In this document: piece by piece, positions 11,551 through 36,200 of the stretch | How the letters are laid out: every line of letters starts with the position of its first letter | Numbering within the stretch: the stretch's first letter is position 1 | Source of the DNA: an uncultured Clostridia bacterium | Lineage (GTDB): Bacteria > Bacillota > Clostridia > TANB77 > CAG-508 | NCBI GenBank assembly: GCA_944391955.1 | Contig: CALXVG010000001.1 | Span: 315,601-379,600 of the forward strand | Length of the DNA stretch: 64,000 nucleotides | Reading direction: 5' to 3' | Translations under genes and position numbers: made by a program | Notes under the pieces: model-generated | The model's database searches: none | What the model was told of the DNA's origin: nothing | Seen by the model: only the letters and a program-made list of their open reading frames with translations

Positions 11551-11559
11551 GTATTACTC

Positions 11560-12852: not shown

Positions 12853-12853
12853 A

Positions 12854-17385: not shown

Positions 17386-17399
17386 GCCTTATCTCCTTA

Positions 17400-18509: not shown

Positions 18510-18510
18510 A

Positions 18511-20369: not shown

Positions 20370-20385
20370 AACTATTACCTCTTTC

Positions 20386-22365
20386 CTATTTTATATATTT
20401 TAAAAGTTTAGGATTTATTTTTTTCCATTTTTGCACAAAATAGTCACCATTATTTTGTATTAAATTTTCATGTTCTTTACTGATATTATCAGTTGTCTGA
20501 TGTGGAAGATGTCCTACTCCCAAATATGTTGTATATGCTAGTTCTTGTCCTTCATTTCTTATTTTTAACGACAAATCTGTATCTTCATAACATGTTGGAT
20601 CATACTTTAAGTCAAATCCTTCCAATTTATCAAATAAAGATTTCTTCATTATTAATCCACCTGTTCCCAAATATCCTATATCGCTTCTGTATAAACCAAT
20701 TGGCGGCATATATTTATATGGAAAACTATCTACTATATGATATGAATATCCTTTTTTATTAAACCAACCAGCTGCCCAACCTAATCCTCCTATTCCTTTA
20801 TGTTCGTTTAATATATCTATATATGGTTCTAACCAGTATTTATGCAATATCCATTGATCACTATCCAAAAACATTATATATTCTTTAGTGGCCTTTGCTA
20901 CCCCTAGATTTCTACCTGATGAACAGCCATTTTTTGAATTTCTGTACAATTTAATTTTGTCCTTATATTTCTCTTGCAACATTTCGTATGAACCGTCTGT
21001 ACTCTGATTGTCTACAACTATTATTTCTATATTATATCTTTCATTAAATTTTATGATTGAGTCTATACAATTTCCAATAACATTTTTGTTGTTGTAGTTT
21101 AATATAACCATTGAAATATTATCATAAAATTTTAAATCACACTTGTTTTGTTCTCCTAAATTGTCTATAATGCTAGTACAACGTGAAAACCAATTATTAT
21201 TTTCTATAAATTCATTTCTGTCATTTATATCAAACTCTATTCCTTCTTTTATCCATTTTATCCAGTCTTTACTATCATTTGAACAATATACATTTTTATA
21301 TTCCACAATATCATCTAGTCTTGTTGAAATAACTGGTTTGTTCATCGCTATATACTCAAATAATTTTAGTGGTGATACATATTTTCCTATTTCATCTGGT
21401 TTAAAAGGTAGTATTGCATAATCTGAATAATATAAATAACTTGGTAAATCTGTTTGTTTCTTTAATCCTAAAAAATGTATATTAGATGGCATTTTTTTCG
21501 TTATATCTATTATGCCTGCATAATCTCCAATTAGATTAATTGAAATTTGTTTGCATTCATCTGCAATTTTCTTTAATATTTCCCAATCAAACCATGTTCC
21601 CCATAATGAGCCATAATAAATAAGTGTTTTTTCCCCTATTACTAAGTCTTTAGGTTTATCATAATTCTTTCTTGGTTCAAATAAATCAGAATCTACTGCA
21701 TTTGGTAAATATAATATTTTTGGAGATTTTACATTGTATTTTTTTGCATATTCTTCTAATTGTTTTACTAATAGCTTTGAGGTACCTACTAAAATTGTAG
21801 ATTTCTTTAAAAATTGTTTTAATGCATTTTCTGAAAAAAACATATTTCCAAGAGAAGTTTCCCAATTATCTATATTTTCATAAATTATTTTGCATCCCTT
21901 GGTTTTAGCCTCTTCAAGATATGGTAAAAATACATCCATTGGTGCCTCAAAAATAAAAATATCATTTTTTTCTATTTTATTTTTAAATTCTTCTTCCTTT
22001 ATTTTATTTACTTTTTTATGTACTGTAACTGGCAACAACATTGAATGTTTGACAGTCTCACTAGAATCAAATACATAATAGTATTCAACTAAATATCCCA
22101 TATTGTTGAAAGTTTTTGCCAACTGCGCTGCTCTTTGTCCTCCTCCTACATCAAAATACGGAATATTTGTAAATATATAAACTCTCTTTTTAGTTTTTAT
22201 TTTTATTTCTTTTTGTTCTTTTTTTGATAATTTATATACTGTATTTGATTTACTAGGATTTTTTACTTTCATTCTAAATGAAGTATATCTATATACTTTT
22301 TTAATTGTTTCCTTAAATCCATTTTCATTGTAATAGTCTTTTATTTTTTGTATTTTAGAATTCAT
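20386..22365 (-). CDS. Bifunctional glycosyltransferase (N-terminal GT4-like + C-terminal GT2)
   Basis: N-terminal half has a GT-B-type 'LKLFEYIAMNKPVIST' motif. C-terminal half has the GT2 signature 'ISMVILNYNNKNV...VVDNQSTDGS'. Confidence 0.7.
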   Translation of the reverse strand: MNSKIQKIKDYYNENGFKETIKKVYRYTSFRMKVKNPSKSNTVYKLSKKEQKEIKIKTKKRVYIFTNIPYFDVGGGQRAAQLAKTFNNMGYLVEYYYVFDSSETVKHSMLLPVTVHKKVNKIKEEEFKNKIEKNDIFIFEAPMDVFLPYLEEAKTKGCKIIYENIDNWETSLGNMFFSENALKQFLKKSTILVGTSKLLVKQLEEYAKKYNVKSPKILYLPNAVDSDLFEPRKNYDKPKDLVIGEKTLIYYGSLWGTWFDWEILKKIADECKQISINLIGDYAGIIDITKKMPSNIHFLGLKKQTDLPSYLYYSDYAILPFKPDEIGKYVSPLKLFEYIAMNKPVISTRLDDIVEYKNVYCSNDSKDWIKWIKEGIEFDINDRNEFIENNNWFSRCTSIIDNLGEQNKCDLKFYDNISMVILNYNNKNVIGNCIDSIIKFNERYNIEIIVVDNQSTDGSYEMLQEKYKDKIKLYRNSKNGCSSGRNLGVAKATKEYIMFLDSDQWILHKYWLEPYIDILNEHKGIGGLGWAAGWFNKKGYSYHIVDSFPYKYMPPIGLYRSDIGYLGTGGLIMKKSLFDKLEGFDLKYDPTCYEDTDLSLKIRNEGQELAYTTYLGVGHLPHQTTDNISKEHENLIQNNGDYFVQKWKKINPKLLKYIK

Positions 22366-22392
22366 GTACTTTCCTTCCTCAAACTTAATATT

Positions 22393-23129
22393 CTACTTCA
22401 TTTGATTTTGATAATACTCTTTACAAATTTCTTCTGCTTTTCCTATTTTCTTTACTTGTCCATGCTCTAGCCATACTGCTCTATCACATATATTTTCTAT
22501 TTGTGCTAATGAATGTGATACAAAAAGTACTGTAGTTCCTCCATTAATCATGCTTTTCATTTTTGCTTCACTTTTTTGCTGAAATGCTATATCTCCTACT
22601 GATAATATTTCATCAACTATTAGTATTTCTGGGTCAACTACTGTTGCTACTGAAAAGGCTAAACGTGCTGTCATACCTGATGAAAAATTTCTTACTGGAA
22701 CATCTAAGAATTCTCTTAATTCTGAAAATTCTACTATTTCTTCAAATTTTTCTTCTATAAATTTTTTACTATAACCTAATACTGCTCCATTCAAGTATAT
22801 GTTTTCTCTTGCTGTTAAATCCATATCAAAGCCTGCTCCTAGTTCTATCATAGGGCATATATTCCCTCGTACTTCTACTTTTCCCTTAGTAGGTTTCATT
22901 ACACCTGCTATAACTTTTAACATTGTTGATTTTCCTGCTCCATTACTTCCTACAAAACCTATTACTTCTCCTCTTTCTACTTCAAATGAAACATCTTTAA
23001 GGGCCCAAAATTCTTCTTTTTTAGGTCTCTTTCTTTTGGGTTGAAATAAGTTTATGAAGAACTGTTTTATTGAAAAGTTTTTTTCTATTCCAAGATTAAA
23101 TCTCATTGATATATTATCTACTTTAATCA
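22393..23129 (-). CDS. ABC transporter ATP-binding protein, polysaccharide/teichoic-acid export type (TagH/Wzt-like), set 1
   Basis: Walker A 'GSNGAGKST', signature 'SSGMTARLAF' and Walker B 'ILIVDE'. Preferred start is MIKVDN at 23129, which has an AGGAGG SD. Confidence 0.85.
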
Positions 23130-23143
23130 TATTTCCTCCTAAA

Positions 23144-23932
23144 TTATACGTAATAAATAAATTTGTCTTGAGTTTTCTTGAAAACAATAACACCTATAAA
23201 TAATACTATTGCTGATGAAATTAGACATACTGCCCAAGTGAAAGGTTGTGGTATTCTGCCATATAAAATTATTTCCCTTGCAAAATTAATATAGTGATAT
23301 AATGGATTTAGTTTTAATATAGGCTGTAATTTTGTTGAAATCATGCTTATGTCATACATTATTGGTGTTAGATAAGTCCACATCATCACTATAATTCCAT
23401 ATATATAAAACATGTCTCTTAAAAAAACTGAAACTGCTGATAATATAAATCCCATTCCTAAAGTAAACATGAATAAGCATACAAATGCATAAGGTAAAAA
23501 TATATGATATATATTAATTCCTGTGCCTGTTGCAAAAAGTACTATGTAAAGTGGAATTAGTGTAAGTAAAAAATTTATTCCTACAAATAAGCATTTTGAT
23601 AATGGAAATATATATTTGGGTATATAAATTTTATTTAATAGTGAAAAACTTCCAACTACTGAACTCATGGCCAAATTTGATGCTTCACTAAAATAGTTGA
23701 ACATTACTAACCCTGATAATAAATAAGCTAAATAACTTACTCCTGGTGTGCTAAATCTAAATACATTTGAAAATACTATTGCCATAACTGTCATTGTTAA
23801 TAATGGATATAATAAGCTCCAAACTATTCCTAATACTGAGCGTTTATATTTTACTTTAAAATCTCTAGAAACCAGTTGTTGTAATAGAAATGAGTATCTT
23901 TTTAAATTTATCATAACGTTTTTCAAAAACAT
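23144..23932 (-). CDS. ABC-2 type transporter permease (TagG/Wzm-like), set 1
   Basis: 262 aa with 6 TM helices, immediately upstream of the ATPase gene. Confidence 0.8.
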   Translation of the reverse strand: MFLKNVMINLKRYSFLLQQLVSRDFKVKYKRSVLGIVWSLLYPLLTMTVMAIVFSNVFRFSTPGVSYLAYLLSGLVMFNYFSEASNLAMSSVVGSFSLLNKIYIPKYIFPLSKCLFVGINFLLTLIPLYIVLFATGTGINIYHIFLPYAFVCLFMFTLGMGFILSAVSVFLRDMFYIYGIIVMMWTYLTPIMYDISMISTKLQPILKLNPLYHYINFAREIILYGRIPQPFTWAVCLISSAIVLFIGVIVFKKTQDKFIYYV

Positions 23933-24104: not shown

Positions 24105-25790
24105 ATGAACTCTAAGAAAAGTAAATTTAATCTAAATTTTGACTACAATAATTTAATAAAAAATACAAAAATAAACAGTAGTACAATTGATATTGCTAAT
24201 CTTATAATGAACAATACGTTTTATGAATCTCCTCAATATGATAAAATTGAATTTGGAGATAAAATAAAATGGGATTACCAACATTTTACAGCAGCTAACA
24301 GTTATCAGCTATATATTCACTCTTTAAATATGATTAGTTATCTAACAGACGCATATTTAGTATCTAAAGATATTAAATATTTAAAAAAAGCATATTCTAT
24401 TTTAAAAGATTGGCAAGAATATAATAAATCAAACTGCAAAGTTAAAAAGAATTATGTTTGGTCTGACCATTCCACAACCTTCCGTACTATAAATATATTA
24501 TATTTTTATTTAGTATCATATAATTTAATTAAAATAAATCATAAAGAAATATATTCTATAATAATAGAACATCTTGATTATTTAAATAATTTTCCTTATT
24601 ATTCTAATGATAATCATGGTATTATGATAGATAGAACTTTGTTATTATCTTCTTTTATATTAAATGACACATTGCTAAGTGCAGTTTATTTCAATAAAAG
24701 TTATTATCGTCTACGAGAAGCATTTTTTCGTGATTTCAGTAAAAAAGGAGTTCATCTAGAAAATTCTGTAGATTATCATTGTATAGTAAAGCGATTGTTT
24801 AAAGAAATAAATGAATTTTTGGTAAAAATGAATTTGTCATTAGGTGATGATATTACTAACATTTTATACGATGATATAGATTATCTAGGGTATATTGAGA
24901 AGCCAGATTGTCGTTTTCCATTAATTGGAGATACAAGTGGAACTCAGGTTAATAAAATAAAAAAACATTTTGATAATTTTATAGATACTAGTGCTGGTAT
25001 TGCAATTTTTCAAAAAGAAAATATAGAAAACCCTTCTAAGTCTTTATGGTTAAGCTTCATTTGTGGCTATGGAAATTCCAACCACAAACATAATGATGAT
25101 TTATCAATTCTTTTATCTAATAATGGATATGATTTATTTGTAGATGCAGGTAAATACAATTATAACCGTAAAGACCCTATAAGAATTTATTGTAAATCTA
25201 TTGCAGCCCATAATACTATTCAAATAGGGGATGATACAAAAGGATATGAAATATTAGCAAATGCTACATCTAGCAATAAACCTCATATTACTGATTTTTT
25301 CCAGGGTTCACAGTATAATTTAATTAAAGGTATAAATGCAAATTATACCAATGCCTGTGTGGAAAGAGCTGTCATTTTGATAAAATCAACTATACTTGTT
25401 ATTTATGATAAAATAGAATGTACTGATGTACAAGATTGCATTCAATCTTTTAATTTAGCTCCTGGTATGACTTATAAGAAGATAAATAAAAATAAATTTG
25501 TGCTTACAAATCATGATTATAATATTATTTATGAACAACATAAACCAATTGACCAAATAGATTTTTTAGAAGCAAATAAAGATTTACCACAAGCTATTAT
25601 TTCAGAAACTTTTAGCAATTTGACTGATATTACTCAAATAAAAGCTCATAAAAAAGGAAAATCAAATTATTTTTTAACTTCTATTAATCTAGATCCTAAT
25701 AACTATCAAATTAATAATTTAGCAGTTGATGATAATAAAAAAATTATTAGTATAAAGATTAATGAAGAAAATTTAGAAATTTTCATATAA
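24105..25790 (+). CDS. Heparinase II/III-like family protein (polysaccharide lyase/epimerase-like)
   Basis: 561 aa with weak matches to conserved heparinase II/III C-terminal regions ('GNSNHKHNDDLS', 'IAAHNT'). SD AGGAGG is present. Transcribed divergently from the ABC exporter genes. Confidence 0.55.
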   Translation: MNSKKSKFNLNFDYNNLIKNTKINSSTIDIANLIMNNTFYESPQYDKIEFGDKIKWDYQHFTAANSYQLYIHSLNMISYLTDAYLVSKDIKYLKKAYSILKDWQEYNKSNCKVKKNYVWSDHSTTFRTINILYFYLVSYNLIKINHKEIYSIIIEHLDYLNNFPYYSNDNHGIMIDRTLLLSSFILNDTLLSAVYFNKSYYRLREAFFRDFSKKGVHLENSVDYHCIVKRLFKEINEFLVKMNLSLGDDITNILYDDIDYLGYIEKPDCRFPLIGDTSGTQVNKIKKHFDNFIDTSAGIAIFQKENIENPSKSLWLSFICGYGNSNHKHNDDLSILLSNNGYDLFVDAGKYNYNRKDPIRIYCKSIAAHNTIQIGDDTKGYEILANATSSNKPHITDFFQGSQYNLIKGINANYTNACVERAVILIKSTILVIYDKIECTDVQDCIQSFNLAPGMTYKKINKNKFVLTNHDYNIIYEQHKPIDQIDFLEANKDLPQAIISETFSNLTDITQIKAHKKGKSNYFLTSINLDPNNYQINNLAVDDNKKIISIKINEENLEIFI

Positions 25791-25852: not shown

Positions 25853-28800
25853 TTATAACTTATCATATAATTTCTTAATTTCATCTATTATTTCTAATGA
25901 TAATTGTTTTTCTTTATCATCTTCAATTAATTCTAATTTTGCTAAATACCAATTATTCATAAAATGTTCATATCGTCTGTTAATATATTCATTAAGTAAA
26001 TTATATTCTTTTAATTTTTGTACTTGATACCTTTCCATTATTAAGAATTTTTCGAAGAATTTATGATTTATAGTATTTACAACCGAATCATTTCTTGCAG
26101 CATAATAGATGTGAATTGGTATATTAATATAATAAGCTTTTTTTGCATTTATCATTAACTCTTGGAAGAACAATGAATCTTGCCCTGCTGCTCCAACTGG
26201 ATTTTCAATTTTATTTTTAGTAATCAATTCTTTTTTTATAACACATGCTTGTATGCTATTGGTCTTAAAATCTTTTTTTATTAATTCTGCTTTAGGATTA
26301 TTAATTTCTTTATCTGATGAAAAATAATTAAAAGTAGCTTCTCTGTCACTTAATTTCATTATACCACCAAAAGCAAAGTCATAATCATTCTTACTTACTA
26401 TTTCAAATAACTTAGCATACCCATCATTTATTGCTTCATTATCTGGATCTAAGTAAGTAACATATTTAGCTGTTGCAAGTTCAATTCCTTTATTTCTAGG
26501 TCTTGAAGCAGTACCACTTCCTCCGTCTGTAAAAGAATAAGTTCTTACATTTGTATATTTATTTTTAATATCGCTGATGGTATTTATAGTTTCTTCGTCT
26601 GTTGAACCATCATCTATTAATAATATTTCCATTTTGTCAAATATTGAGCTTCTCAATAAACTATTAAAACATTTATAAAGCAAGAATTTTCCATTATTAT
26701 ATATTGGTACTATTACTGATAATTCTGGAGTACTAAATTTAGAGTACTTAATAGTAGTTATACCAAATGGATCTATACTATATCCATTTCCTTCAATATG
26801 TTTATCTTTAATTGTTTCTATTACATTATATTTTTTTGAATCAAAAATAGAAATTCTTACATCTGAAGGTTCATTAATATAGTCATGATTAATTCCTTCT
26901 ATTTTTCCATTTTGAATTCTACTATTAATTGTTATATAGTCACATGCTGTATATTTAAATGCGTTAATCATATCTTCTATATAGTGTCTCTGATAGTTAA
27001 TATCATCTGACATATATGCAATATAATCATATTGCACTGCAATTTCATCTGTTAATTTTTCTAATTCTATAATGTCTTTATTTGTATATGTTTGACTTTG
27101 ATACATGCTTTCAATCTTATCTGTAATCTTATCACAAACTACTAATACTCTTTTGTCTTTAATAATATATTTATTTTCATCAATACATCTAAATATATAA
27201 TTTAATTTATCATATACTGTATGATGTGACATTACATTTCTAATTCCATCAATTTGCATTTTATATATTTCTACTTCATTGTATGAATTTAAAATTTTAC
27301 TAACTTCAAAAAAATTTTTAACAATAAAAATATTTGGAAATTTGTTATTTACAGCTATACTATAATTTGAAATCATAAGATTTCCAATTGCTTGTAACTC
27401 ATAAACCCTCATTGCACACATTGTAGGGCTATATTTAATGCTGTTTAAATTTAATGACCAGTTAAAAAGTTTATGAACTTTTTGCAATTTTTCATGGTCA
27501 ATTGCTGGTATAATATATTTATTATATTCTATTGGAAATTCATATCCAGAAATATTGCAGTTTCTATCCGCTAATATTAGATTATTATTTGATTGAATTA
27601 CTCCATCAAATAGTATTCTAGCATCTTGACATCTTTCTTTATATCTTGGTGCCCAACTTCCTGCAAAAAATACGTCACTTGTTAGCTTTAATTTTTCATT
27701 TTTAAACCCGATTGGATTATGGAACTGCGGATTTACACCATAATCTAACAAAAATACATTTTCATTTCCAGTATCTATTTTATAATTTTCTATCATTTCA
27801 CTTGCTGTAGTAAAAATATAATTTGCATGTTTTGCAATAGGTAAAAATACTTCATAATTACTTGGATCTTCAATCGTCTGAAATATTACTTTTTTATTCT
27901 GCTTTTTTGCATATTCCAATACTTCTATTACTCTGTTTCGTCCTGCCTCACTAGTCATACCTCTCCAATCGTTATTATTCATTCCATGCCAACAACTTAC
28001 AAATAATACTATATCTACTTGGTTTATTATTTCTTTATAGTTTAAATATGATATATATATTAATTGAGTAGCATCCTTGTAGTAATTAAACATATATTCA
28101 TCTGTTATTATTCCTATCTTAACTCGAATTTTTTCATAATAATTCGACCCATTTGAATTAGGAATATCTTTTATTAAATTATCAATATTTTTATAAAAAT
28201 CCATATTTACTTTTGGTTCATTTTTTATTTTTGCTACTACTTTTCTATTAAAAGAAGGTAATCGGTTTGTAAAAATAGAATTTTTAAGATTTTTAATTTT
28301 TCTTAATATTTTGATAATCTTCCTTTGATTAAATCTCTTAATAACATTGTTTAATTCTTTAATTTGCTTCATATTTTTTTCTTTTTCCTCTTCTAGTAGA
28401 ATTTTTTTTCTTTCTTCTTCTTGTAATAGCTGAGAAAGATTTGTTATCTTCTTTTCTAAATTTTCTATGTCTTTTTTATATTTTTGAACTAGATTTTCTA
28501 TAACTTTTTTATTTTCTTTAACTTTATTTTCTAAGTCCATATTTTTTTTATTACTTATTTGTAAATCTTGAAGTGTTTCATAATAGTTTATATATAGCTT
28601 GTTTTCTTTTTCATATAATGATTTTTCCATTTTTTCTAAATACTTTAACGGCATTACTTGTTTTTCACTATTAGATTTAATGCATTTAATCCCTATCCAT
28701 TCATCGAAAAATTCCATGTTTATAATTTCTAGCATTCCATTAGTTTCTTTAAAAAGATCATATACATAATATGTTTTTTTATGGTCGAAATAACTATTAA

Positions 28801-29242
28801 TTCCAAATGGGACTGTAATTATTATTGCTCCATTGTCATTTAAAAGTGTTACTACTTTTTTTAAAATTTCTACAGGATAAAATACATGTTCTAATATTTC
28901 CGAAAGAATTATTGTATCATATTTGTTTGTTGTTTCTAAATCATTTATAGAAACATTAATAAAATTAACCTTTTCTTGTATTTCCTTTTCTTCTTGTTCT
29001 TTAATTTTGTTTGCTTTTTCAATTGCACTTTTATCTATATCAATTCCTAAAGCTGTTTTTCCCTCTCTTGCCATGAGAATAGGAAAAATTCCAGATGAAC
29101 AACCTACATCAAGAATACTGTCTCCTTGTACCATCTGAGACATCCAAAGAAACCTTTTTTGAATCTTCATTTGAAATTCTTTTCCTAACGCTCCTTTATA
29201 TCCTTCGTAAATTTTATCATTGTTTAGTATTTTTTCATCCAT
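25853..29242 (-). CDS. Multidomain SAM-methyltransferase / coiled-coil / GT2 glycosyltransferase (WsaE/WbdD-like chain-capping enzyme candidate)
   Basis: N-terminal class I MTase motif 'ILDVGCSSGIF', about 120 aa of heptad-like K/E-rich coiled coil, and a C-terminal GT2 domain 'LSVIVPIYNNGKFL...LIDDGSTDE'. It is co-located with ABC exporter set 2. Confidence 0.7.
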   Translation of the reverse strand: MDEKILNNDKIYEGYKGALGKEFQMKIQKRFLWMSQMVQGDSILDVGCSSGIFPILMAREGKTALGIDIDKSAIEKANKIKEQEEKEIQEKVNFINVSINDLETTNKYDTIILSEILEHVFYPVEILKKVVTLLNDNGAIIITVPFGINSYFDHKKTYYVYDLFKETNGMLEIINMEFFDEWIGIKCIKSNSEKQVMPLKYLEKMEKSLYEKENKLYINYYETLQDLQISNKKNMDLENKVKENKKVIENLVQKYKKDIENLEKKITNLSQLLQEEERKKILLEEEKEKNMKQIKELNNVIKRFNQRKIIKILRKIKNLKNSIFTNRLPSFNRKVVAKIKNEPKVNMDFYKNIDNLIKDIPNSNGSNYYEKIRVKIGIITDEYMFNYYKDATQLIYISYLNYKEIINQVDIVLFVSCWHGMNNNDWRGMTSEAGRNRVIEVLEYAKKQNKKVIFQTIEDPSNYEVFLPIAKHANYIFTTASEMIENYKIDTGNENVFLLDYGVNPQFHNPIGFKNEKLKLTSDVFFAGSWAPRYKERCQDARILFDGVIQSNNNLILADRNCNISGYEFPIEYNKYIIPAIDHEKLQKVHKLFNWSLNLNSIKYSPTMCAMRVYELQAIGNLMISNYSIAVNNKFPNIFIVKNFFEVSKILNSYNEVEIYKMQIDGIRNVMSHHTVYDKLNYIFRCIDENKYIIKDKRVLVVCDKITDKIESMYQSQTYTNKDIIELEKLTDEIAVQYDYIAYMSDDINYQRHYIEDMINAFKYTACDYITINSRIQNGKIEGINHDYINEPSDVRISIFDSKKYNVIETIKDKHIEGNGYSIDPFGITTIKYSKFSTPELSVIVPIYNNGKFLLYKCFNSLLRSSIFDKMEILLIDDGSTDEETINTISDIKNKYTNVRTYSFTDGGSGTASRPRNKGIELATAKYVTYLDPDNEAINDGYAKLFEIVSKNDYDFAFGGIMKLSDREATFNYFSSDKEINNPKAELIKKDFKTNSIQACVIKKELITKNKIENPVGAAGQDSLFFQELMINAKKAYYINIPIHIYYAARNDSVVNTINHKFFEKFLIMERYQVQKLKEYNLLNEYINRRYEHFMNNWYLAKLELIEDDKEKQLSLEIIDEIKKLYDKL

Positions 29243-29244
29243 TT

Positions 29245-29994
29245 TTAAGATTTTTTTACTCCTTTTCCATCCATGAATTTGGTATAATTATCTACCACCT
29301 TTTCTGTTGTATCAAAATCAATTAAATTCCCATTATCTATCCATATAGTTTTAGAACATATTTCTTTTATTGTATTTAAACTATGTGAAACTATTAGAAT
29401 AGTTTTATCTTTATTTTTTATTATTTCTTTTATCTTAGCATAACTTTTTTCTCTAAAGCTTATATCTCCTACACTAAGTACTTCATCAATAAGTAATATA
29501 TCAGTATCTAATAGTGTTGTAATAGAAAATGCTAGTTTTGAGTGCATTCCACTTGAATATGTTTTTACAGGTTTATATATGAAATCTCCGAGTTCTGAAA
29601 ATTCAATAATTTCATCTATTTTTTCATTGATTTTTTCCTTTGTAAACCCTAAAAGGAGACCTGATAAAATTATATTTTCATATCCTGATAATTCAACATT
29701 AAAGCCAAGTCCAATAGATAATAATGCTACAGTATTATCTTTTATATCTACAGTTCCTGTATCTGGTGAAAATATTCCTGCAATAGTTTTTAATAATGTA
29801 CTTTTTCCACTACCATTTCTACCAATTACTCCAATAACACTACCTTTTTCTATTTTAAAATTAATATTTTTTAATGCTGTAAAAACATCTTTCTTTTTCC
29901 ATATTTTTAAAATGTTAGACTTAATTCTAAAAGATTTCATAGAACGATAATTTACAGATAAATTGTCTACTATTATAGCATACTCTTTTTTCAC
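29245..29994 (-). CDS. ABC transporter ATP-binding protein (Wzt/TagH-like), set 2
   Basis: Walker A 'GRNGSGKST', signature 'SSGMHSKLAF' and Walker B 'ILLIDE'. Confidence 0.85.
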   Translation of the reverse strand: MKKEYAIIVDNLSVNYRSMKSFRIKSNILKIWKKKDVFTALKNINFKIEKGSVIGVIGRNGSGKSTLLKTIAGIFSPDTGTVDIKDNTVALLSIGLGFNVELSGYENIILSGLLLGFTKEKINEKIDEIIEFSELGDFIYKPVKTYSSGMHSKLAFSITTLLDTDILLIDEVLSVGDISFREKSYAKIKEIIKNKDKTILIVSHSLNTIKEICSKTIWIDNGNLIDFDTTEKVVDNYTKFMDGKGVKKS

Positions 29995-29995
29995 T

Positions 29996-30778
29996 TTACA
30001 TCACCTTTGCATATGAATTTTCATATTTATGAATTAATTTAATTCCAATAATAGTTAAAAGTACTACTATTACTGTCCAATAAGCAAATAATTGAAAGTT
30101 TAATCCTGTTCCATACATGAAAACATTTCTAAAATCTTCAATTATATATGCTATAGGGTTTATTCTCATCATAATATTAGTTAAGTTTGCAGGCAATGTC
30201 TCTGAAATAGAATAGAAAATTCCTGATAGATAAAAAACTAGCCTTAATATAATTTGTAAAATATTTGCAGAATCTTCAATAAATACTCCAAAATGGGATA
30301 AAATGGTTGATAATGCAAACGATAATAAACATAATAAAAGCATTAATGGTATAGTATAAAGTATATTAACTGTAACCTCTACTTTTAAAATTATTGACAT
30401 TACTGCTAATAAAACAAGAGAGATAAGAAATTTAATAAAATTAACATATATTTTTTCCACAACTAACATATATTTAGGAATATATTTTTGACTTATTATT
30501 CCCTTATTGCTACGAATTATTTTTACACAGGTTAGTAAATTTTTATTAAAAAAATTCCATATTGTTATTCCACACATAACAAAAACTGGCAAATTTGGTA
30601 CAGAAGTTTTAAATACAACTTGAACAATAAATGTATATATAAGCATAAAAAATAAAGGGTCTAGTATCCACCATAGCCATGTTAAATAAGAACTTGCTAC
30701 CTCTGCTTTTAGCTCTGATTTTGCAGCATACATAGCATATGGATTATATTTTTTAAAATTTTTAATAAACTTTCTCAT
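29996..30778 (-). CDS. ABC-2 type transporter permease (Wzm/TagG-like), set 2
   Basis: 260 aa with 6 TM helices, directly upstream of ATPase set 2. Confidence 0.8.
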   Translation of the reverse strand: MRKFIKNFKKYNPYAMYAAKSELKAEVASSYLTWLWWILDPLFFMLIYTFIVQVVFKTSVPNLPVFVMCGITIWNFFNKNLLTCVKIIRSNKGIISQKYIPKYMLVVEKIYVNFIKFLISLVLLAVMSIILKVEVTVNILYTIPLMLLLCLLSFALSTILSHFGVFIEDSANILQIILRLVFYLSGIFYSISETLPANLTNIMMRINPIAYIIEDFRNVFMYGTGLNFQLFAYWTVIVVLLTIIGIKLIHKYENSYAKVM

Positions 30779-30844: not shown

Positions 30845-32050
30845 TTAAATCTTATATGTTCCTTCTAAATTACATATGTTTTGTGTGTCTAATATTGTTT
30901 TACCTTTTAATAAATTCATATTGTCTATTATTTCTTTATGTTTTACCATTATTATTACAAAGTCAACATCATTTAAGAAGGTTTTTAAATCATGATATTG
31001 GTTTTCTACAACATCTTCTTTTATAAATGGGTCATAAACCTTTAAAGGTTCTGCTAAATGTTTTTTCTGTGCTTCTAATAATTGTAATGTTGGGCTTTCA
31101 CGATAATCGTCAACATCTTCTTTATATGTTAATCCATATATTCCTACACGTTTATAGTCTTTTAGCCCTTTTTCTTTCATTATTTTACTTGTTAATTCTA
31201 GCACAAATGATGGCATTGAATCATTAACTTTCATTGATTCTCCTATTACTTTTGTTAAAGAAGGATAATCTCCTACTAAGAACCATGGGTCAACAGAAAT
31301 ACAATGTCCTCCAACGCCTGGTCCTGGATTTAGTATATTTACTCTTGGATGCATATTGCAAATTTTAATTATTTCATATACATTCATTCCGTTATGATTA
31401 CATATTTTTGCAAGTTCATTTGCAAAAGCTATATTTACTGCACGAAATGTGTTCTCTACTACTTTTGTCATTTCTGCACTTTTTATATCTGTTATTATTA
31501 CATCTCCACTAGTTGTTTTACGGTATATTTCAGCAACTTTTTCTCCTATTTCTTTTTCATCTGCTCCTATTGTTCTTGAATTATGTTTTAATTCGTAAAT
31601 CATGTTTCCAGGTATTATTCTTTCTGGTGCATGTACAAGATGAACTTTTTTGTTAATAATAGGTTTTACATATTTTTCAATAGTACCTGGAGATACTGTT
31701 GATTCAATAGCAATTATTGCTCCTTCATCACACACTTCTAATACATTTTTTACTGCATTTATAACATATGTTGCATCAACTTTTTTACTAAATTTATCAT
31801 ATGGTGTTGGCACAGAAACAATATACATTTCTGTTTTTGGATATTTATTTGTGAAAGTAATGTTACCACTCTTTATTGCTTTACTAAAAAGTTCTTCTAG
31901 TCCATCTTCTTTAAATGTTACTCTTCCTGCATTAAGTTCATCTACTAATTTTTTGTTATAATCTGTTCCTATTACCTTGTAACCAGCATTTGCCATTGTA
32001 AGTGCTGTTGGTAATCCTATGTATCCTAATCCTACCACGTTTATTTCCAT
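30845..32050 (-). CDS. Nucleotide-sugar dehydrogenase (UDP-ManNAc dehydrogenase WecC/Cap5O-like, or Ugd)
   Basis: N-terminal Rossmann 'INVVGLGYIGLPTA' and a catalytic-Cys region 'PGVGGHCI'; 401 aa. Confidence 0.8.
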   Translation of the reverse strand: MEINVVGLGYIGLPTALTMANAGYKVIGTDYNKKLVDELNAGRVTFKEDGLEELFSKAIKSGNITFTNKYPKTEMYIVSVPTPYDKFSKKVDATYVINAVKNVLEVCDEGAIIAIESTVSPGTIEKYVKPIINKKVHLVHAPERIIPGNMIYELKHNSRTIGADEKEIGEKVAEIYRKTTSGDVIITDIKSAEMTKVVENTFRAVNIAFANELAKICNHNGMNVYEIIKICNMHPRVNILNPGPGVGGHCISVDPWFLVGDYPSLTKVIGESMKVNDSMPSFVLELTSKIMKEKGLKDYKRVGIYGLTYKEDVDDYRESPTLQLLEAQKKHLAEPLKVYDPFIKEDVVENQYHDLKTFLNDVDFVIIMVKHKEIIDNMNLLKGKTILDTQNICNLEGTYKI

Positions 32051-32051
32051 A

Positions 32052-32792
32052 TTATTTACATCTCCTTTTATTATTTATGTTTTTTTCTAGTATTACATCA
32101 AATATAAATGAAACTATCTTAGTCTGCCTAAAAATTCTTTTCGGCTCTTTTATCAAACGATACAGCCATTCAAGACCTTTATTCTGTACCCATTTTGGAG
32201 CTCTCTTTTTGTGTCCGCTAATTACGTCAAATGAGCCACCTACTCCCAATAATATTTTACAATTTAATTTATTGAAGTTTTTAGATATGAATTTTTCTTG
32301 TTTTGGCGATCCTAGCGCTACAAATAGAATATCTGGATTACTATTATTGATTGTCTTTATTATTTTCTTTTCATCGTTTTCATAGCCATTTATATATCCG
32401 CAAATATTTATATTTTCATATTGTTCTTCAAGTTTTTGTTTTGCTTTTTCTATAATATCTGCTTTTGCGCCATACATAAATATTCTAAAGTTTTCTTTAT
32501 TTGATAAATCACATATCATTTCCATTGTGTCAATTCCGGTTATTCTTGATTTTATGTTTCCTTTTTTTATTTTTGATGCATAAATAATTCCTATTCCATC
32601 TGGTATTTGATATTGAGCATTATTCAAAATTTTTTTTAGTGATTCATCTTTTTTTGCTTTAATAACTTTTTCCGGATTTATAGTTACTATGTATGATTTT
32701 TTGTTTTTTTCTATGTCATTTTTAATAGCATTTCGCAGTTCTTCATAAGTTGTGACGCAAACATCTATTCCTAAGATTTTTTCCTTTTCCAT
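32052..32792 (-). CDS. WecB/TagA/CpsF family glycosyltransferase, second paralog
   Basis: 'MYGAKADI...VALGSPKQE...GVGGSFDVISGHKKRAPKW...EWLYRLIKEPKR'. Near-identical nucleotide stretches are shared with the 10822-11550 copy. Confidence 0.85.
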   Translation of the reverse strand: MEKEKILGIDVCVTTYEELRNAIKNDIEKNKKSYIVTINPEKVIKAKKDESLKKILNNAQYQIPDGIGIIYASKIKKGNIKSRITGIDTMEMICDLSNKENFRIFMYGAKADIIEKAKQKLEEQYENINICGYINGYENDEKKIIKTINNSNPDILFVALGSPKQEKFISKNFNKLNCKILLGVGGSFDVISGHKKRAPKWVQNKGLEWLYRLIKEPKRIFRQTKIVSFIFDVILEKNINNKRRCK

Positions 32793-33031
32793 AAATGCTC
32801 CTAAAATGTGATAATTTATTTTTAATCATCATATGAATTATTTGAAATAGTATCATAAAATGTAGACAATTGTCAAGATAAACGGGATAAAAATAATTTC
32901 CATAACAACTATTATGCATTTTTTTAAAATTTTTTTCTTCTTTTTTCCATGTAATTTTATCGTTTTTTTGCACATAATATTATTAGAAAAATGAATTAAC
33001 AGAAATCCATTTTTCTAAGGAGGATTTAAAG

Positions 33032-33199
33032 ATGTCAAGAAGTGAAAACTTAATGTCTGAAAATCTAAAAACAGAAATTGCAAAAGAGTTAGGAGTATAT
33101 GATATAGTTAAACGAGATGGTGGTTGGGGTAATGTTTCTGCACAAAAATGTGGTTCAATGGTAGCAAAAGCAATAGAAATAGCTAATAGAAGTGTTTAA
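33032..33199 (+). CDS. Small acid-soluble spore protein, alpha/beta type
   Basis: 55-aa ORF below the ORF-track cutoff: MSRSENLMSENLKTEIAKELGVYDIVKRDGGWGNVSAQKCGSMVAKAIEIANRSV. It has the SASP motifs 'K.EIA.ELGV' and 'S..CGS'. A strong SD (AAGGAGG, 8 nt upstream) and a terminator follow. Confidence 0.8.
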   Translation: MSRSENLMSENLKTEIAKELGVYDIVKRDGGWGNVSAQKCGSMVAKAIEIANRSV

Positions 33200-33214
33200 G
33201 TAAAAGACAAAAAT

Positions 33215-33246
33215 ATAACCCCAAATTTGGGGTTATATTTTTTTAT
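33215..33246. terminator. Bidirectional rho-independent terminator (SASP gene / LPXTG gene)
   Basis: Perfect palindrome ATAACCCCAAATTTGGGGTTAT followed by a T-run. It lies between convergent stops at 33199 and 33253. Confidence 0.7.
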
Positions 33247-33252
33247 TGTTTA

Positions 33253-36200
33253 TTATCTTCTTCTTATTCTTCTGTATTCAAATATTGCAAATACACTTAA
33301 TGCAATTACTGCAATTACTAATATTATTATTATTGAATAATTACCTGTATATGGTAGTTCTCCTGGGTTAGTTGTATCTTTAGGCTCTGCACTAATTCCT
33401 ACTGTATTTGATGATGTTTCTTCTCCATTGTTAGCATTTACTGTTGCAGTATTAGAAATTCTTACATTTCCTGTTAATGAATTTACTATTACTGAGAACT
33501 CTAGTGTTTCACTTTCTCCTGGTTCCAATAGTTCAATTGTTTTTGTTACTTGTGTTCTTGTATTATCACTTATATATTCGTTTCCAACTTTTTCTACATA
33601 AGTTGTATATTCTGGTATATTATCTGTGATTATTACATCATGTGCATTGCAGTCTCCTGTATTTGTAACTGTAATTGTATATGTTATGATATCTCCTTCT
33701 TTTACTGTTGTACCTGTTGATATAGAACTTGTTTTTTGAAGGCTTAATTGTGGCACACTTATTTGTGAGTCAATACCTACTTCATTTGTAGAAATTTCTG
33801 GACTATTTTCTGCACTTACTTTTGCTGTATTTTTTATAGTTCCATTTGTTGGAATTTCATCAACAATTACTTGGAATGAGAATGATCGATGTTCTCCAGC
33901 TGCTAATACAGGTATTGTATGTGATATATCAGTTTTATCAGGATCTTTTGTATTATTTTCATAATAAATTGTATGCTCTGGTACTGTATCACTTATTACT
34001 ACGTTATATGCTGGTGTATCACCATCATTATAAACTGTAATTGTGTATGTTATGATGTCTCCTTCTTTTACTACTGTTCCCTCAGCTATAGAACTTGTTT
34101 TTTCTACTCTTATATTTGGTACTGTTATATCTGCTGATATTCCAACAGTGTTAGATGATGTGTCTGGTACATTGTCTCCTGTTACAGTTGCTGTATTTCT
34201 TATTTGTGTTGCAGTACTTATTCTGCCTACTTTAACAGTGAAAGATATTGAGAAGCTATCTCCTGGGTCCAATGTTGCTCTGGTTTCTGATATTTCTGTT
34301 ATTGAAGAATTTTCTGTGTTTGTTGTTGTATCATAATATGTTGTTCCTGTTGGTACAGTATCTTTTATTGTTATATTTTCTGCTGCTTCATATCCATCAT
34401 TGTAAACTGTGATTGTGTATGTAATTAAATCCCCTTCTTTTACTGTAGCTCCAGCAGCTATTGAACTGGTTTTCTCTACTCTTAATATTGCTTCTGATGT
34501 ACTTGCTGGAATTTCTACTGTATTAGAAGTTTCTGTTTCTCCTCCATCATATGTAACTGTTGCAGCATTTTGTATAATTGTATCTTCAGTTATTGGGTCA
34601 ACAACAACTGTAAAACTAAATTCATATGTTTCTCCTGGTGCTAAAACATCTTTAGGATCTGAAGAAATACTTACTTTTTCTGGGTCTAATGCTCCTGTTG
34701 TTGGGTCTTTATATGTTGTATTTTTTGGAATAGCGTCATGTATAATTACATTTTTTGCTATACCGTCTCCATCGTTACGAACAATTATTGTATATGTTAT
34801 TTCGTCTCCTTCTCTTACTGTTTGTCCATCTGGTATTGAACTTGTTTTAGTAACAGTTAAGTTTGGTGTACTTGTAACTGCAGATATTTCTGTTGGGTTT
34901 GATGGTACTGTCTCTATACCATCAGCTGAAACATTTGCTGTATTGTTTATTGTTGTATTTGCTGTTATTTCTGTAACCATTACTGAAAAACTATATGTGT
35001 ATGAATCTCCTGCTGCTATTGTTCCAATATCTTCTGTAATTGTAGTTTTACTTGCATCTTGAATATATCCTCCTGCTCCATCTGAAGTTACATATATTGT
35101 ATTTGCTGGTATATTATCAGTAAGAACTACATTTTCTGCATCTACTTCTCCACTATTTCTAATAGTAATTGTATATGTTATAATGTCTCCTTCTTTTACT
35201 GTAGCTCCATCAGCTATTGAACTTGTCTTCTCTGCACTTATTATTGGACCTGTTCCTGTTGTTAAACCAACTTTTGCTGATTCTGAAGTATTCGTTGTTC
35301 CATCTGCTGTATAGTATCCTCCAAAGTTTGCAAAAAGTTCTTTTCCATAGTTTAATCCTGGCATAACATAGAATTCATATGAAAATTTTACTTGTTCGCC
35401 TACATCTAAAGTATCATCTATTACTATTAAATATGATTTAATTGATGATAGCGCATCTGGTGATGTTGTCCAATTGTTTGATGCTAAATCTAAATCTTTT
35501 GTTGCATTTAAATTATCTGAATAGTATATTGTAACATTGTTTTTACTTGTTAGTTGGGTTATTGTGCTTGTTAATACTGTATCTATTGTTGTTCCTAAAT
35601 CGCCTCCAGATATTGCATATTTGTTTCCAGTATAAGGAATTCTTCCTAATAATGTTATTCCACTAACAGGAACTGTATGATTGTTTTGAGCTATTAATGT
35701 CATTACTGGGAAAGCACCATCTCTTCCCATAACTGCTGCTGTATCTTTATCATTTACTGAATTTACTGTTTCTGTTCCATTATAATTACTTATTTCAGAT
35801 ACACATAGAAGATTTGTATCTGTAACAAAGTTTATGTCGCTAGTTGCTACACCACATGCTGTACCATCTGCAAAAACATGGTCTCCTTCTGCTTCACCTG
35901 TTGCTGAAGTTGTTAAAGCCCAAGTTCCCGGATTTTGATACTCGCATGCTGCGTCATTTATATAATATAATTTAACTTCTTGTGATAAGTTTGATGCATA
36001 TTTGTTTACTAATACTTTTAGTTTTAATGTTATACTTGTAGGTTTGTCGTATATGTCTTTTTGAGCACCTGTACAATTAAATACCAAATGTAATTTTCCA
36101 TCAACCACTTTAATTTTAGCTTCATTAAATGCTATATTCATTTGTGTTGTGCCATCACTTTGATTAGTGAATTGATATTCAAAACTAGTATTTAAACCAG

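Follow-up and report, generated by a model that had tools for sequence, protein, structure and literature searches.

Proteins that join a chain terminator to glycan polymerase modules have been described in several bacteria. ORF6 of K. pneumoniae O7 comprises a methyltransferase-kinase terminator, a coiled coil and two GT2 modules (PMC11231755). A related format is known from WbbB of O12, which is described in the same paper in a summary of Williams et al. 2017. Among Gram-positives, WsaE of G. stearothermophilus NRS 2004/3a is a trifunctional protein with an N-terminal 2-O-methyltransferase, which forms the cap, followed by two glycosyltransferase (GT) domains (PMC2943079). All terminated OPS examples carry a carbohydrate-binding module (CBM) on Wzt that recognises the cap (PMC11231755).

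We analysed a DNA stretch of 64,000 nucleotides (hereafter the window) that stems from a MAG of an uncultured clostridial lineage. An uninterrupted ORF on its minus strand (25853-29242) encodes a protein of 1129 aa without any TM segment. Since two glycosyltransferase modules reside in this one protein, it is most likely a glycan polymerase fused to a probable terminator and thus more than a mere capping enzyme.

The operon and related loci

The genes are arranged in the order TagA, UDP-ManNAc dehydrogenase, Wzm, Wzt and 1129-aa protein. The latter is preceded, and on its other side faced, by the following genes:

32052-32792, minus strand: first operon gene, a glycosyltransferase of the TagA/TarA/WecG family acting as linkage-unit transferase for ManNAc or ManNAcA (PF03808, E 1.9e-63; TarA, 205 bits)
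30845-32050, minus strand: nucleotide-sugar dehydrogenase, best match UDP-ManNAc dehydrogenase, which would make UDP-ManNAcA (TIGR03026, 414 bits, above cut-off)
29996-30778, minus strand: Wzm/TagG-type ABC-2 permease, 260 aa (PF01061, E 4e-11; six hydrophobic segments)
29245-29994, minus strand: Wzt/TagH-type ABC exporter ATPase, 249 aa (PF00005, E 4e-21)
24105-25790, plus strand: 561-aa cytoplasmic protein of heparinase II/III fold, its gene convergent with that of the 1129-aa protein (PF07940, E 1e-18; PF16889, E 3e-15)

Promoter-like sites were found at 32847-33038, with a terminator hairpin further upstream (33209-33242), and a TagO-like gene is located within the window at 2574-3686. Against PRK11064 UDP-ManNAc dehydrogenase, the dehydrogenase reached 323 bits, which is under the cut-off of 459 bits. 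For the ATPase, NCBIfam gave 218 bits with TagH and 191 bits with galactan Wzt, likewise below the cut-offs. Permease and ATPase form the ABC-2 exporter pair that an earlier sequence-only reading had placed next to the gene; the pair lies at 29245-30778, directly upstream and in the same operon. The Wzt of the window consists of the ABC_tran domain alone and has no CBM. The same applies to its orthologues (246-255 aa) in eight of eight related loci possessing an ATPase gene (L001-L006, L009, L010). Cap-gated export is unsupported, because the module is missing here and in all eight loci.

The gene set of the operon recurs in eight further loci, in seven of them as a set (L001, L002, L004, L005, L006, L009, L010) and in L008 partially, so that synteny extends over gut and environmental Firmicutes plus other lineages. 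An LCP ligase is encoded in L006 and L010. By its gene content, the operon predicts a wall-anchored polymer containing ManNAcA. The heparinase-fold protein, which has neither a signal peptide nor a TM segment, matched heparinase III (4fnv) with E 2e-8. Its gene is adjacent or near in L001, L002, L004, L005, L009 and L010. Furthermore, P0040 and P0066 are fusions of the heparinase fold with the polymerase family, and L004 and L005 encode it fused to a different GT2. It is thus a conserved partner.

The window also contains the sporulation and germination genes YpeB, SleB-like and SpoIIGA, and a gene for an O-antigen-ligase-like membrane protein (9254-10771), which belongs to a second cluster about 15 kb off. 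A 1614-aa DUF11-repeat surface protein is encoded immediately upstream.

Modules of the 1129-aa protein

From the N- to the C-terminus, the protein is composed of a methyltransferase, a coiled coil, a basic helix, a GT-B module, an alpha/beta domain and a GT2/GT-A module, all encoded on the minus strand:

28673-29242, minus strand (residues 1-190): class I SAM-dependent methyltransferase, putative chain terminator (Pfam, AlphaFold fold, motifs)
28328-28648, minus strand (residues 199-305): heptad-periodic coiled-coil spacer (AF2 helices, periodicity, register)
28223-28327, minus strand (residues 306-340): basic amphipathic helix through which the polymerase module may contact the membrane (AF2 helix 308-340)
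27173-28156, minus strand (residues 363-690): glycosyltransferase of GT-B fold, putatively a divergent, CgeB-like member of DUF3880 + Glyco_trans_1_2, and first of the polymerase modules (fold, Foldseek, conservation)
26738-27148, minus strand (residues 699-835, ~135 aa): small alpha/beta domain, possibly a degenerate GT-A-like remnant (confident AF2 fold)
25853-26728, minus strand (residues 839-1129 and stop codon): GT2/GT-A glycosyltransferase whose C-terminal part is a helical bundle, the second polymerase module (PF00535, Foldseek, motifs)

Pfam Methyltransf_31 matched residues ~28-146 with E 1.9e-16, and five further methyltransferase families gave E<1e-11; the families matched within residues 1-190 were Methyltransf_31, 23, 12, 11 and 25 (E 1e-16 to 1e-11). 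AlphaFold returned a seven-strand Rossmann-type fold (pLDDT ~86-94) as is characteristic of class I enzymes, with a glycine-rich motif I and the acidic D68 at the end of strand 2. Motif conservation was assessed in alignment A1, the methyltransferase motifs in its methyltransferase-bearing homologues, across which motif I LDVGCSSG (LDxGCSxG), D68, E115 and E118-H119 are conserved. The nearest sequence relatives of the domain are generic UbiG-like enzymes. Its fold and its position at the protein end distal to the GT modules are established, and it is a candidate terminator of the chain.

Both GT modules lie C-terminal to the coil, and their catalytic motifs are conserved. The sub-model of the GT-B module (pLDDT 93.8, pTM 0.92) was confirmed by structure search as a two-Rossmann GT-B fold, with Foldseek matches in the PDB between E 6e-10 and 1e-7, namely PglA 8dqd (6.4e-10), BA1558 2jjm, Gtf3 3rhz, BshA 3mbo and PimA 2gej. 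In the window protein, PF13524 scored only 19 bits (17.7-19.2 bits) against a cut-off of 25 bits, whereas relatives from the family passed it with 47.7 and 40.4 bits over the same region. Conservation within the family is highest in this module, which holds all 26 invariant alignment columns, including E458-D459-P460, D559-R560-N561, R612 and E615. In the small alpha/beta domain, the 'SDD' at 745-747 is not conserved in the alignment, and hhalign gave a probability of 3% for a relationship to the GT2 block of the family. The two-domain enzymes K4CP and EXTL3 could be aligned across 520-640 columns, with a high rmsd. For the GT2 module, PF00535 matched residues 842-976 (E 1.1e-18; 68 bits, cut-off 23.3 bits), and the motifs D877-D878-G-S (DDGS) and D932-P-D934 (DxD) are conserved. 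The NCBIfam matches of the GT2 block, PRK10073 (E 1.7e-27) and TuaG (E 3.8e-15), were both sub-cut-off. Sequence matches in the PDB comprised 3bcv, TarP 6h1j, GalT1 5hea, RmlT 8bz4 and TarS 5tze; Foldseek yielded TarP, TarS and RmlT (E ~1e-15 to 1e-13).

The sequence-only reading had reported the same coordinates and protein length, which were reproduced exactly, and had named a SAM methyltransferase, a coiled coil of ~120 aa and a GT2 domain. All three features were recovered. Pfam families, fold and SAM-binding motifs agree on the first, the AlphaFold model showed both the methyltransferase fold and a long helical linker, and the GT2 assignment was borne out by PF00535 with its two motifs. 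The list was incomplete in that ~480 residues between linker and GT2 had been missed. Architecture and comparative data back its general idea of an ABC-transporter-dependent pathway with a methyltransferase spaced by a coiled coil from GT activity, but a mere chain-capping enzyme does not account for the GT-B and GT-A modules, which make a role as polymerase most likely.

Linker, proposed chain termination and alternative readings

AlphaFold placed helices at residues 199-258, 266-305 and 308-340. The 3.5-residue hydrophobic periodicity of the first two was reached by 0.65% and 1% of shuffled sequences, respectively, and the heptad register does not change between ~203 and ~300, being strongest over the low-confidence break of the AF2 model at 258-267. 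The spacer would thus comprise ~100-107 aa, close to the ~120 aa estimated before, and measure ~15 nm if continuous. In the AF2 monomer model, the helix is broken at 258-267; a folded-back hairpin at this site may bring the methyltransferase near the GTs. The helix 308-340 showed no heptad, its 3.5-residue periodicity not exceeding that of shuffles. It is amphipathic, with a hydrophobic moment of 0.51 and a net charge of +7 over residues 304-321, and homologues without methyltransferase keep a basic form of it at their N-terminus. These properties suggest a membrane role.

Among the homologues, the linker between methyltransferase and GT-B varies from 110 to 357 aa, whereas the catalytic blocks are constant in length (GT-B 311-323 aa, small domain 152-194 aa, GT2 ~281-309 aa where present). 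In none of the measurable methyltransferase-bearing homologues (32 of 34) is the linker shorter than 110 aa, while the polymerases without methyltransferase possess just ~23-74 aa ahead of GT-B. Linker and methyltransferase thus co-vary, which means that the long coil accompanies the methyltransferase rather than the polymerase. Both the variation in length and the restriction of long linkers to methyltransferase-bearing proteins would fit a ruler. Counted modulo 7, 14 of 32 linker lengths fall into the same class, a bias that is not significant on unique lengths alone (Bonferroni p 0.14). The methyltransferase itself is missing from ~73% of the family members, and the whole operons of L004 and L005 do not contain any. 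We therefore concluded that capping is not intrinsic to the polymerase; across these sequences, the cap would be an optional add-on within the family.

With a probability of about 0.58, the protein unites in a single polypeptide the polymerase and the terminator of a cell-wall polysaccharide that is produced via an ABC-transporter-dependent route. A TagO/WecA-type enzyme (2574-3686) would prime undecaprenyl phosphate with GlcNAc-1-P, and TagA (32052-32792) would add a ManNAc-type linkage sugar. GT-B (363-690) and GT-A (839-1129) would then alternate to extend a ManNAcA-containing repeat, the ManNAcA probably being supplied by the dehydrogenase of the operon together with a UDP-GlcNAc 2-epimerase. 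The polymerase end would be held at the membrane, possibly via the basic amphipathic helix 306-340, and the SAM methyltransferase at the N-terminus would be kept at a distance from it by a continuous coiled coil of ~100 residues (~15 nm). A chain would first have to grow to the length at which it reaches the methyltransferase; only then would it be O-methylated at the non-reducing end, and its extension would be blocked. Finally, the lipid-linked polymer would be exported by Wzm/Wzt and joined to peptidoglycan by an LCP-type ligase such as those in related loci.

Alternatively, the two GT modules might polymerise while the methyltransferase decorates internal residues, in all or some repeats, or the uronic-acid carboxylate, the coil merely dimerising or trimerising the enzyme. 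The missing Wzt CBM, without which a terminal cap would not be read, and the optional occurrence of the methyltransferase across the family speak for this, as does the structural resemblance of GT-B to, among others, mannosyltransferase 7qsg of the mycobacterial methylmannose polysaccharide pathway. That pathway alternates methylation with glycosylation. We nevertheless regard such a decorating enzyme as unlikely. It would not benefit from a spacer of 110-357 aa, and the long coil occurs solely where the methyltransferase is present; since polymerases without methyltransferase do without it, the coil is not needed for their oligomerisation. Moreover, the characterised coiled-coil proteins of the pathway all carry a terminator as their distal domain (PMC11231755).

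It is quite improbable that we are dealing with a dedicated capping and regulating enzyme of the WbdD type, as the sequence-only reading had proposed; such an enzyme would mainly terminate chains, its GT2 adding just a terminal or adaptor sugar while other enzymes polymerise. A methyltransferase and a coiled coil beside an ABC-2 exporter would be expected of it, and at L009 and L010 a separate paralogue without methyltransferase is encoded in the same operon, which could be the main polymerase. However, both in the window operon and in that of L002, a compact set of seven genes, the 1129-aa protein or its counterpart is the sole GT besides TagA and for this reason must polymerise. The two conserved GT modules, GT-B being the family's best conserved region, the lack of a kinase domain and the marginal similarity to WbdD (E ~0.01) also argue against it. 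Equally improbable is a product outside the wall, be it a capsule, a glycan of the spore surface or exosporium, or one linked to protein (S-layer type, as for WsaE). GT-B may indeed belong to the DUF3880/Glyco_trans_1_2 group, labelled 'spore maturation protein CgeB' by sources, and the window harbors YpeB, SleB-like, SpoIIGA, the O-antigen-ligase-like protein and the DUF11-repeat protein. Yet TagA and a TagGH-like exporter in the operon, combined with an LCP ligase in two related loci, are the signature of a peptidoglycan-anchored polymer, and the O-antigen-ligase-like gene resides with the distant second cluster.

A wider version of the polymerase-terminator reading is doubtful. It envisages a CBM-independent terminator-ruler for a Gram-positive, peptidoglycan-anchored, glycosaminoglycan-like polymer, in which an exostosin-like GT-B/GT-A co-polymerase would build the ManNAcA chain, a coupled heparinase-fold enzyme would remodel the nascent chain, and the methyltransferase on its variable coil would set the length without a cap-reading exporter. 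If this were true, a cytoplasmic heparinase-II/III-fold enzyme, physically coupled to the polymerase and in some species fused with it, would act on the nascent lipid-linked chain, e.g., by C5-epimerisation of ManNAcA to L-GulNAcA or by beta-elimination cleavage.

Comparison with described enzymes

O7 ORF6 likewise unites an N-terminal SAM methyltransferase, a central coil and two C-terminal polymerising GT modules in one polypeptide; its gene resides beside wzm and wzt, and chain synthesis starts from a GlcNAc primer linked to undecaprenyl. Likened here by published layout, the two proteins differ in that ORF6, which adds methyl-phosphate, has its methyltransferase and coil separated by a kinase and a CBM-like Ig domain, whereas the clostridial protein lacks both domains. 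ORF6 uses two GT2 modules on rhamnose in place of GT-B, small alpha/beta domain and GT2 with predicted ManNAcA supply, and the O7 Wzt has a CBM (PMC11231755), unlike the clostridial one. WbbB of O12 and Raoultella terrigena, as portrayed in the summary cited above, combines terminator, coiled-coil molecular ruler and two-GT polymerase in a single protein, the simplest format (PMC11231755). According to that summary its terminator is a beta-Kdo glycosyltransferase (GT99) instead of a methyltransferase, a CBM is present on its Wzt, and it serves a Gram-negative organism in making LPS O antigen.

WsaE, to which the sequence-only reading had also pointed, proved an apt comparison, both proteins having an N-terminal methyltransferase and two GT domains (PMC2943079). 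It too is a soluble protein of a Gram-positive, ABC-transporter-dependent pathway, encoded directly after wzm and wzt, in which the methyltransferase makes the non-reducing-end cap and two GTs build the repeat. The name was not among the source-named sequence hits, and the likeness rests on the published description. WsaE produces a poly-L-rhamnan for O-glycosylation of the S-layer protein, with initiation by WsaP (Gal-1-P transferase) and transfer by an oligosaccharyltransferase, whereas the clostridial locus is predicted to have TagO/TagA initiation, ManNAc/ManNAcA instead of rhamnose supply, and LCP-type anchoring in relatives. Furthermore, one clostridial GT module is a GT-B, and a coiled coil is not described for WsaE in PMC2943079.

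By contrast, the likeness to WbdD claimed at the same time is only partial. In E. coli O9a WbdD, too, a class I methyltransferase precedes an extended coiled coil; the coil sets chain length, and the terminator lies at the membrane-distal end, as is proposed for the clostridial protein (PMC3482155; PDB 4azs/4uw0). However, it contains a kinase and no GT, relies on a separate polymerase, WbdA, which its membrane-proximal C-terminus recruits, and operates with a Wzt bearing a cap-binding CBM, whereas the clostridial protein has two GTs of its own. Kinase families gave no match to the latter, and its model shows no folded domain between the methyltransferase (ending at ~190) and the coil (starting at 199). 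In phmmer searches against the WbdD chains of the PDB, only residues 42-137 of the methyltransferase core matched (E 0.008-0.011), and no homology was detected outside this generic core.

The order of GT-B followed by GT-A, with a uronic-acid precursor supplied by the operon, recalls GT-B/GT-A co-polymerases of uronic-acid polymers, namely the exostosins EXT/EXTL3 and the teichuronic acid enzymes TuaH plus TuaG of B. subtilis. EXTL3 aligned over more than 600 columns at an rmsd of 13-14 A with no detectable exostosin sequence homology, a likeness of architecture only; for TuaG, it lies in the sub-threshold TuaG and PRK10073 matches of the GT2 block. The closest layouts are those of K. pneumoniae O7 ORF6 and O12 WbbB, and the layout is also that of Geobacillus WsaE, not of WbdD. 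Enzymes of this type were known before, and rather than introducing a new principle the clostridial protein is a further example of them.

Domain layout and operon

The sequence-only reading had described a protein of 1129 aa encoded at 25853-29242, and this open reading frame exists exactly so on the minus strand. Six Pfam families of class I methyltransferases matched residues ~28-146 (E 1e-16 to 1e-11), a GT2 domain (PF00535, E 1.1e-18) was located at 842-976, and a simple heptad score together with an AlphaFold monomer model (mean pLDDT 89.4, pTM 0.72) disclosed long helices at 199-258, 266-305 and 308-340. The methyltransferase (MT), the coiled-coil linker and the GT2 domain claimed previously were therefore all recovered. 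However, approximately 480 residues between the coil and GT2 had been overlooked.

This part of the protein contains the most conserved portion of the family, residues 363-690, in which 26 of the 26 invariant alignment columns reside. A sub-model of residues 345-840 (pLDDT 93.8, pTM 0.92) revealed that this domain has a GT-B glycosyltransferase fold, whose Foldseek matches include PglA (E 6.4e-10), BA1558, Gtf3, BshA, PimA and MshA as well as a methylmannose-polysaccharide mannosyltransferase. By sequence it is a divergent DUF3880 plus Glyco_trans_1_2 ('CgeB-like') module, scoring 19 bits in the window protein (sub-threshold), while the same region of relatives gave 47.7 and 40.4 bits (above threshold). 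Residues 699-835 form a small alpha/beta domain, confidently folded in the predicted structure; no conservation of its 'SDD' was seen, and a comparison with the GT2 block by hhalign gave a probability of 3%. The C-terminal GT-A module, with conserved DDGS and DxD motifs, resembles TarP, TarS, RmlT and CgT. In front of GT-B, residues 304-321 make up a very basic amphipathic helix (net charge +7). Since MT-less homologues keep a basic form of this helix at their N-terminus, it belongs to the polymerase module, to which it may provide membrane contact.

Features of the locus and its surroundings:

25853-29242 (-): polymerase gene, last of a tightly packed five-gene operon with the order TagA/TarA-family glycosyltransferase, nucleotide-sugar dehydrogenase, ABC-2 permease, ABC ATPase, polymerase
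33209-33242: terminator hairpin ahead of the operon, which promoter-like sites also precede
24105-25790 (+): heparinase-II/III-fold gene, convergent with the operon
10822-23932 (-): second complete ABC-transporter-dependent glycan cluster, directly downstream
7958-9067 (-): UDP-GlcNAc 2-epimerase, elsewhere in the window
2574-3686: TagO/WecA-type initiator, elsewhere in the window

The best match of the operon's dehydrogenase was a UDP-ManNAc dehydrogenase. Sporulation and division genes in the window (YpeB, a SleB-like hydrolase, SpoIIGA, FtsZ, FtsA; G+C ~25%) identify the host as an uncultured endospore-forming Firmicute. A copy of the protein with 98% identity was found in L001, a related locus from a MAG labelled 'uncultured Clostridia bacterium'.

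The second cluster possesses its own TagA and its own Wzm/Wzt pair, Wzt (266 aa) being devoid of a carbohydrate-binding module (CBM). Its sugar genes (CapE/FnlA-like, RmlD-like, Epimerase_2) represent a UDP-L-FucNAc-type pathway, and its glycosyltransferases comprise a 659-aa GT-B plus GT2 protein, a 984-aa protein with three GT2 domains and the products of two GT4 genes. It is followed by an O-antigen-ligase-like membrane protein (9254-10771, +) and the 2-epimerase gene. Directly upstream of the operon, 33253-38097 (-) encodes a 1614-aa protein bearing a signal/TM segment at the N-terminus, a hydrophobic segment at the C-terminus and five DUF11 repeats, which also match DUF7507/DUF7927. The G+C content of this gene (0.30-0.33) exceeds that of its surroundings (~0.25). 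The likely product is a large surface protein, which could be a partner associated with the glycan. A TraG/TrwB-type coupling-protein fragment at the start of the window (56-979, +) and an ORF6N-domain protein (45900-46790, -) may be left over from mobile elements in the neighbourhood of the glycan loci.

The linker and the distribution of the methyltransferase

A hydrophobic periodicity of 3.5 residues as pronounced as that of the first two helices was reached by only 0.65% (199-258) and 1% (266-305) of shuffles; in helix 308-340 it was not above shuffles. The absolute heptad register is unchanged from ~203 to ~300 and is strongest across 258-267, the low-confidence 'break' of the monomer model. 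Thus, the sequence argues for one continuous coil of ~100 residues, which would span roughly 15 nm if each residue contributes 0.15 nm.

An exhaustive homologue search yielded 1303 50%-identity representatives at E<=1e-30. The best 150 of these all had E<=4e-136, and most aligned over residues ~345-1127 only, indicating that the conserved unit is the polymerase core composed of GT-B, the small domain and GT-A. Among 216 members having the GT-B anchor, 58 (27%) contain the MT. The linker between MT and GT-B, measured in 32 of the 34 MT-bearing homologues, comprised at least 110 aa in every case (range 110-357 aa), and the catalytic blocks were constant in length (GT-B 311-323 aa; GT2, where present, about 281-309 aa). 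MT-less forms have ~23-74 aa ahead of GT-B. Consequently, the long coil travels with the MT and not with the polymerase, which would be the behaviour of an MT spacer, unlike that of an oligomerisation element of the polymerase. The variation in linker length is seen, for example, when the homologues P0032, P0033, P0080 and P0081 are set against the window protein (linker residues ~190-356). Of the 32 linker lengths, 14 (values 133, 154, 168, 175, 182, 189, 196, 357) fell into one modulo-7 class (p 0.0003). With each length counted once and a correction for seven classes, this bias was not significant (p 0.14); it is no more than suggestive of indels in whole heptads.

The largest group of N-terminally extended MT-less members shares a common domain, typically of ~230 aa, ahead of GT-B; it gave no Pfam match in P0171, P0132, P0157 and 26 other representatives (N-termini of ~190-390 aa). 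P0143 and P0133 carry unassigned N-termini of ~540 aa, including ~136 coiled-coil-like residues. Such unassigned N-termini of MT-less members could be uncharacterised terminator modules.

Related loci and the heparinase-fold partner

The gene set of TagA, dehydrogenase, Wzm, Wzt, polymerase and 2-epimerase, often accompanied by a heparinase-fold protein, recurs in MAGs labelled Clostridia, Bacilli, Clostridium, Eubacteriaceae and Eggerthellaceae and also in Anaerofustis. Locus L002 is a compact seven-gene operon between cysS and ogg, whose only glycosyltransferases are TagA and the homologue of the window protein, leaving the latter as the polymerase by elimination. An LCP (LytR-CpsA-Psr) ligase additionally present in L006 and L010 points to a peptidoglycan-anchored polymer. 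No MT was found in the operons of L004 and L005. Two loci, from Anaerofustis and one other genome, harbor MT-less and MT-bearing polymerase paralogues side by side:

L009, 4799-7360 and 10001-13423: paralogue pair
L010, 4896-7364 and 10001-13912: paralogue pair

The MT-less (822-853 aa) and MT-bearing (1140-1303 aa) copies flank Wzm/Wzt and the epimerase within the same operon, and a conserved 587-aa protein, which has no Pfam match, follows the MT-bearing copy. The pairs suggest a two-domain or four-linkage polymer with a terminator on one polymerase only. Close homologues of the Firmicute-type TagA/dehydrogenase/MT-polymerase operon were also seen in Bacteroidota- and Actinomycetota-assigned MAGs (L007, contig CAYNLX010000060, 4.4 kb, labelled Muribaculaceae; L008, labelled Eggerthellaceae). 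Horizontal mobility of the operon, or mis-binning of the 4.4-kb contig, may account for this.

A heparinase-II/III-fold protein accompanies the polymerase as a conserved partner; it was found in L001 and, besides the window, at:

L002, 13413-15080
L004, 12531-16964, and L005, 8873-13315: fused to another GT2 (proteins of 1477-1480 aa)
L009, 15208-17592, and L010, 15703-17832: the paralogue-pair loci

In the 1882-aa homologue P0040 the whole polymerase is fused (MT, coil, GT-B, GT2, Hepar_II_III_C), and in P0066 the polymerase core is joined to the heparinase fold. Neither a signal peptide nor a TM segment was found in the window's heparinase-fold protein. Given this and the fusions to cytoplasmic glycosyltransferases, its substrate is probably the nascent uronic-acid chain. 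The conserved proximity and the fusions imply a biosynthetic role on such a polymer, as a lyase or C5-epimerase. A conceptual precedent is V. cholerae VpsJ, recently proposed to C5-epimerise ManNAcA once incorporated into the lipid-linked intermediate (PMC13463779).

Proposed mechanism and comparison with known systems

Our favoured reading, with a probability of roughly 0.6, is that the window protein is a single-polypeptide polymerase-terminator. A lipid-linked primer would be made by TagO and TagA, and the GT-B and GT-A modules would alternate in extending a ManNAcA-containing repeat. As a rule, GT4-like GT-B enzymes retain the anomeric configuration and GT2 enzymes invert it; a backbone of alternating alpha and beta linkages, as in the beta-ManNAcA/alpha-hexose motif of Micrococcus luteus-type teichuronic acids, would fit this pair. 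The coiled coil would hold the MT ~15 nm from the membrane-proximal polymerase, so that only sufficiently long chains would be O-methylated at the non-reducing end, whereupon growth would stop and the chain would be exported by Wzm/Wzt.

A Wzt devoid of a CBM and the optional occurrence of the MT would also agree with an MT decorating internal residues, but this is unlikely because the long spacer is specific to the MT. That the protein is a dedicated capping enzyme, with polymerisation carried out by others, is improbable in view of the minimal operons containing no further glycosyltransferase besides TagA. The CgeB-like label and the surface-protein and ligase-like genes nearby might indicate a glycan of the spore surface, a protein-linked glycan or a capsule; TagA, the TagGH-like exporter and the LCP ligases in relatives speak for a wall polymer instead, and we give the former little credence. 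Rather doubtful is also the combination of a CBM-independent ruler system, a glycosaminoglycan-like wall polymer and a coupled heparinase-fold remodelling enzyme.

So far, what is known of the coiled-coil ruler strategy comes almost entirely from Gram-negative O antigens. The family studied here is a compact Gram-positive test case (seven genes, e.g., L002) with a more than three-fold natural variation of the linker, and its MT-bearing and MT-less paralogues, served by an exporter without a cap-reading module, could show whether capping alone suffices to set chain length when export is not gated. The conserved heparinase-fold partner, fused in some cases, suggests an as yet uncharacterised step in the cytoplasm that acts on a uronic-acid polymer. 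The family occurs mostly in uncultured Firmicutes of the gut and the environment, so its polymer would be a surface antigen not described before.

The closest layouts are those of three known proteins. In K. pneumoniae O7 ORF6, a methyltransferase at the N-terminus and a coiled coil in the middle precede two GT modules at the C-terminus. K. pneumoniae O12 WbbB is made up of a terminator, a coil and a polymerase with two GTs, and in Geobacillus WsaE two GT domains accompany an N-terminal methyltransferase that forms the cap (PMC2943079). WbdD, which possesses a kinase and lacks a GT, is a poorer match, its similarity to the window protein (E ~0.01) being confined to the methyltransferase core. 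The sequence-only reading had thus turned to the right family of ideas, but its emphasis on WbdD and on a 'capping enzyme' was misplaced. In every characterised terminated system, a CBM on Wzt gates the export of capped chains (PMC11231755). The system described here departs from these by its optional MT and by its Wzt, for which no CBM was found in the window (249 aa) or in 8 of 8 related loci including the ATPase gene (246-255 aa); hence the MT, if a terminator, works without cap-gated export. Since the architecture of terminator, coil and polymerase has already been described and is called widespread in the literature, our finding extends known biology and changes none of it. The window protein is a member of this known kind in an uncultured Firmicute, distinguished by a different set of polymerase modules.
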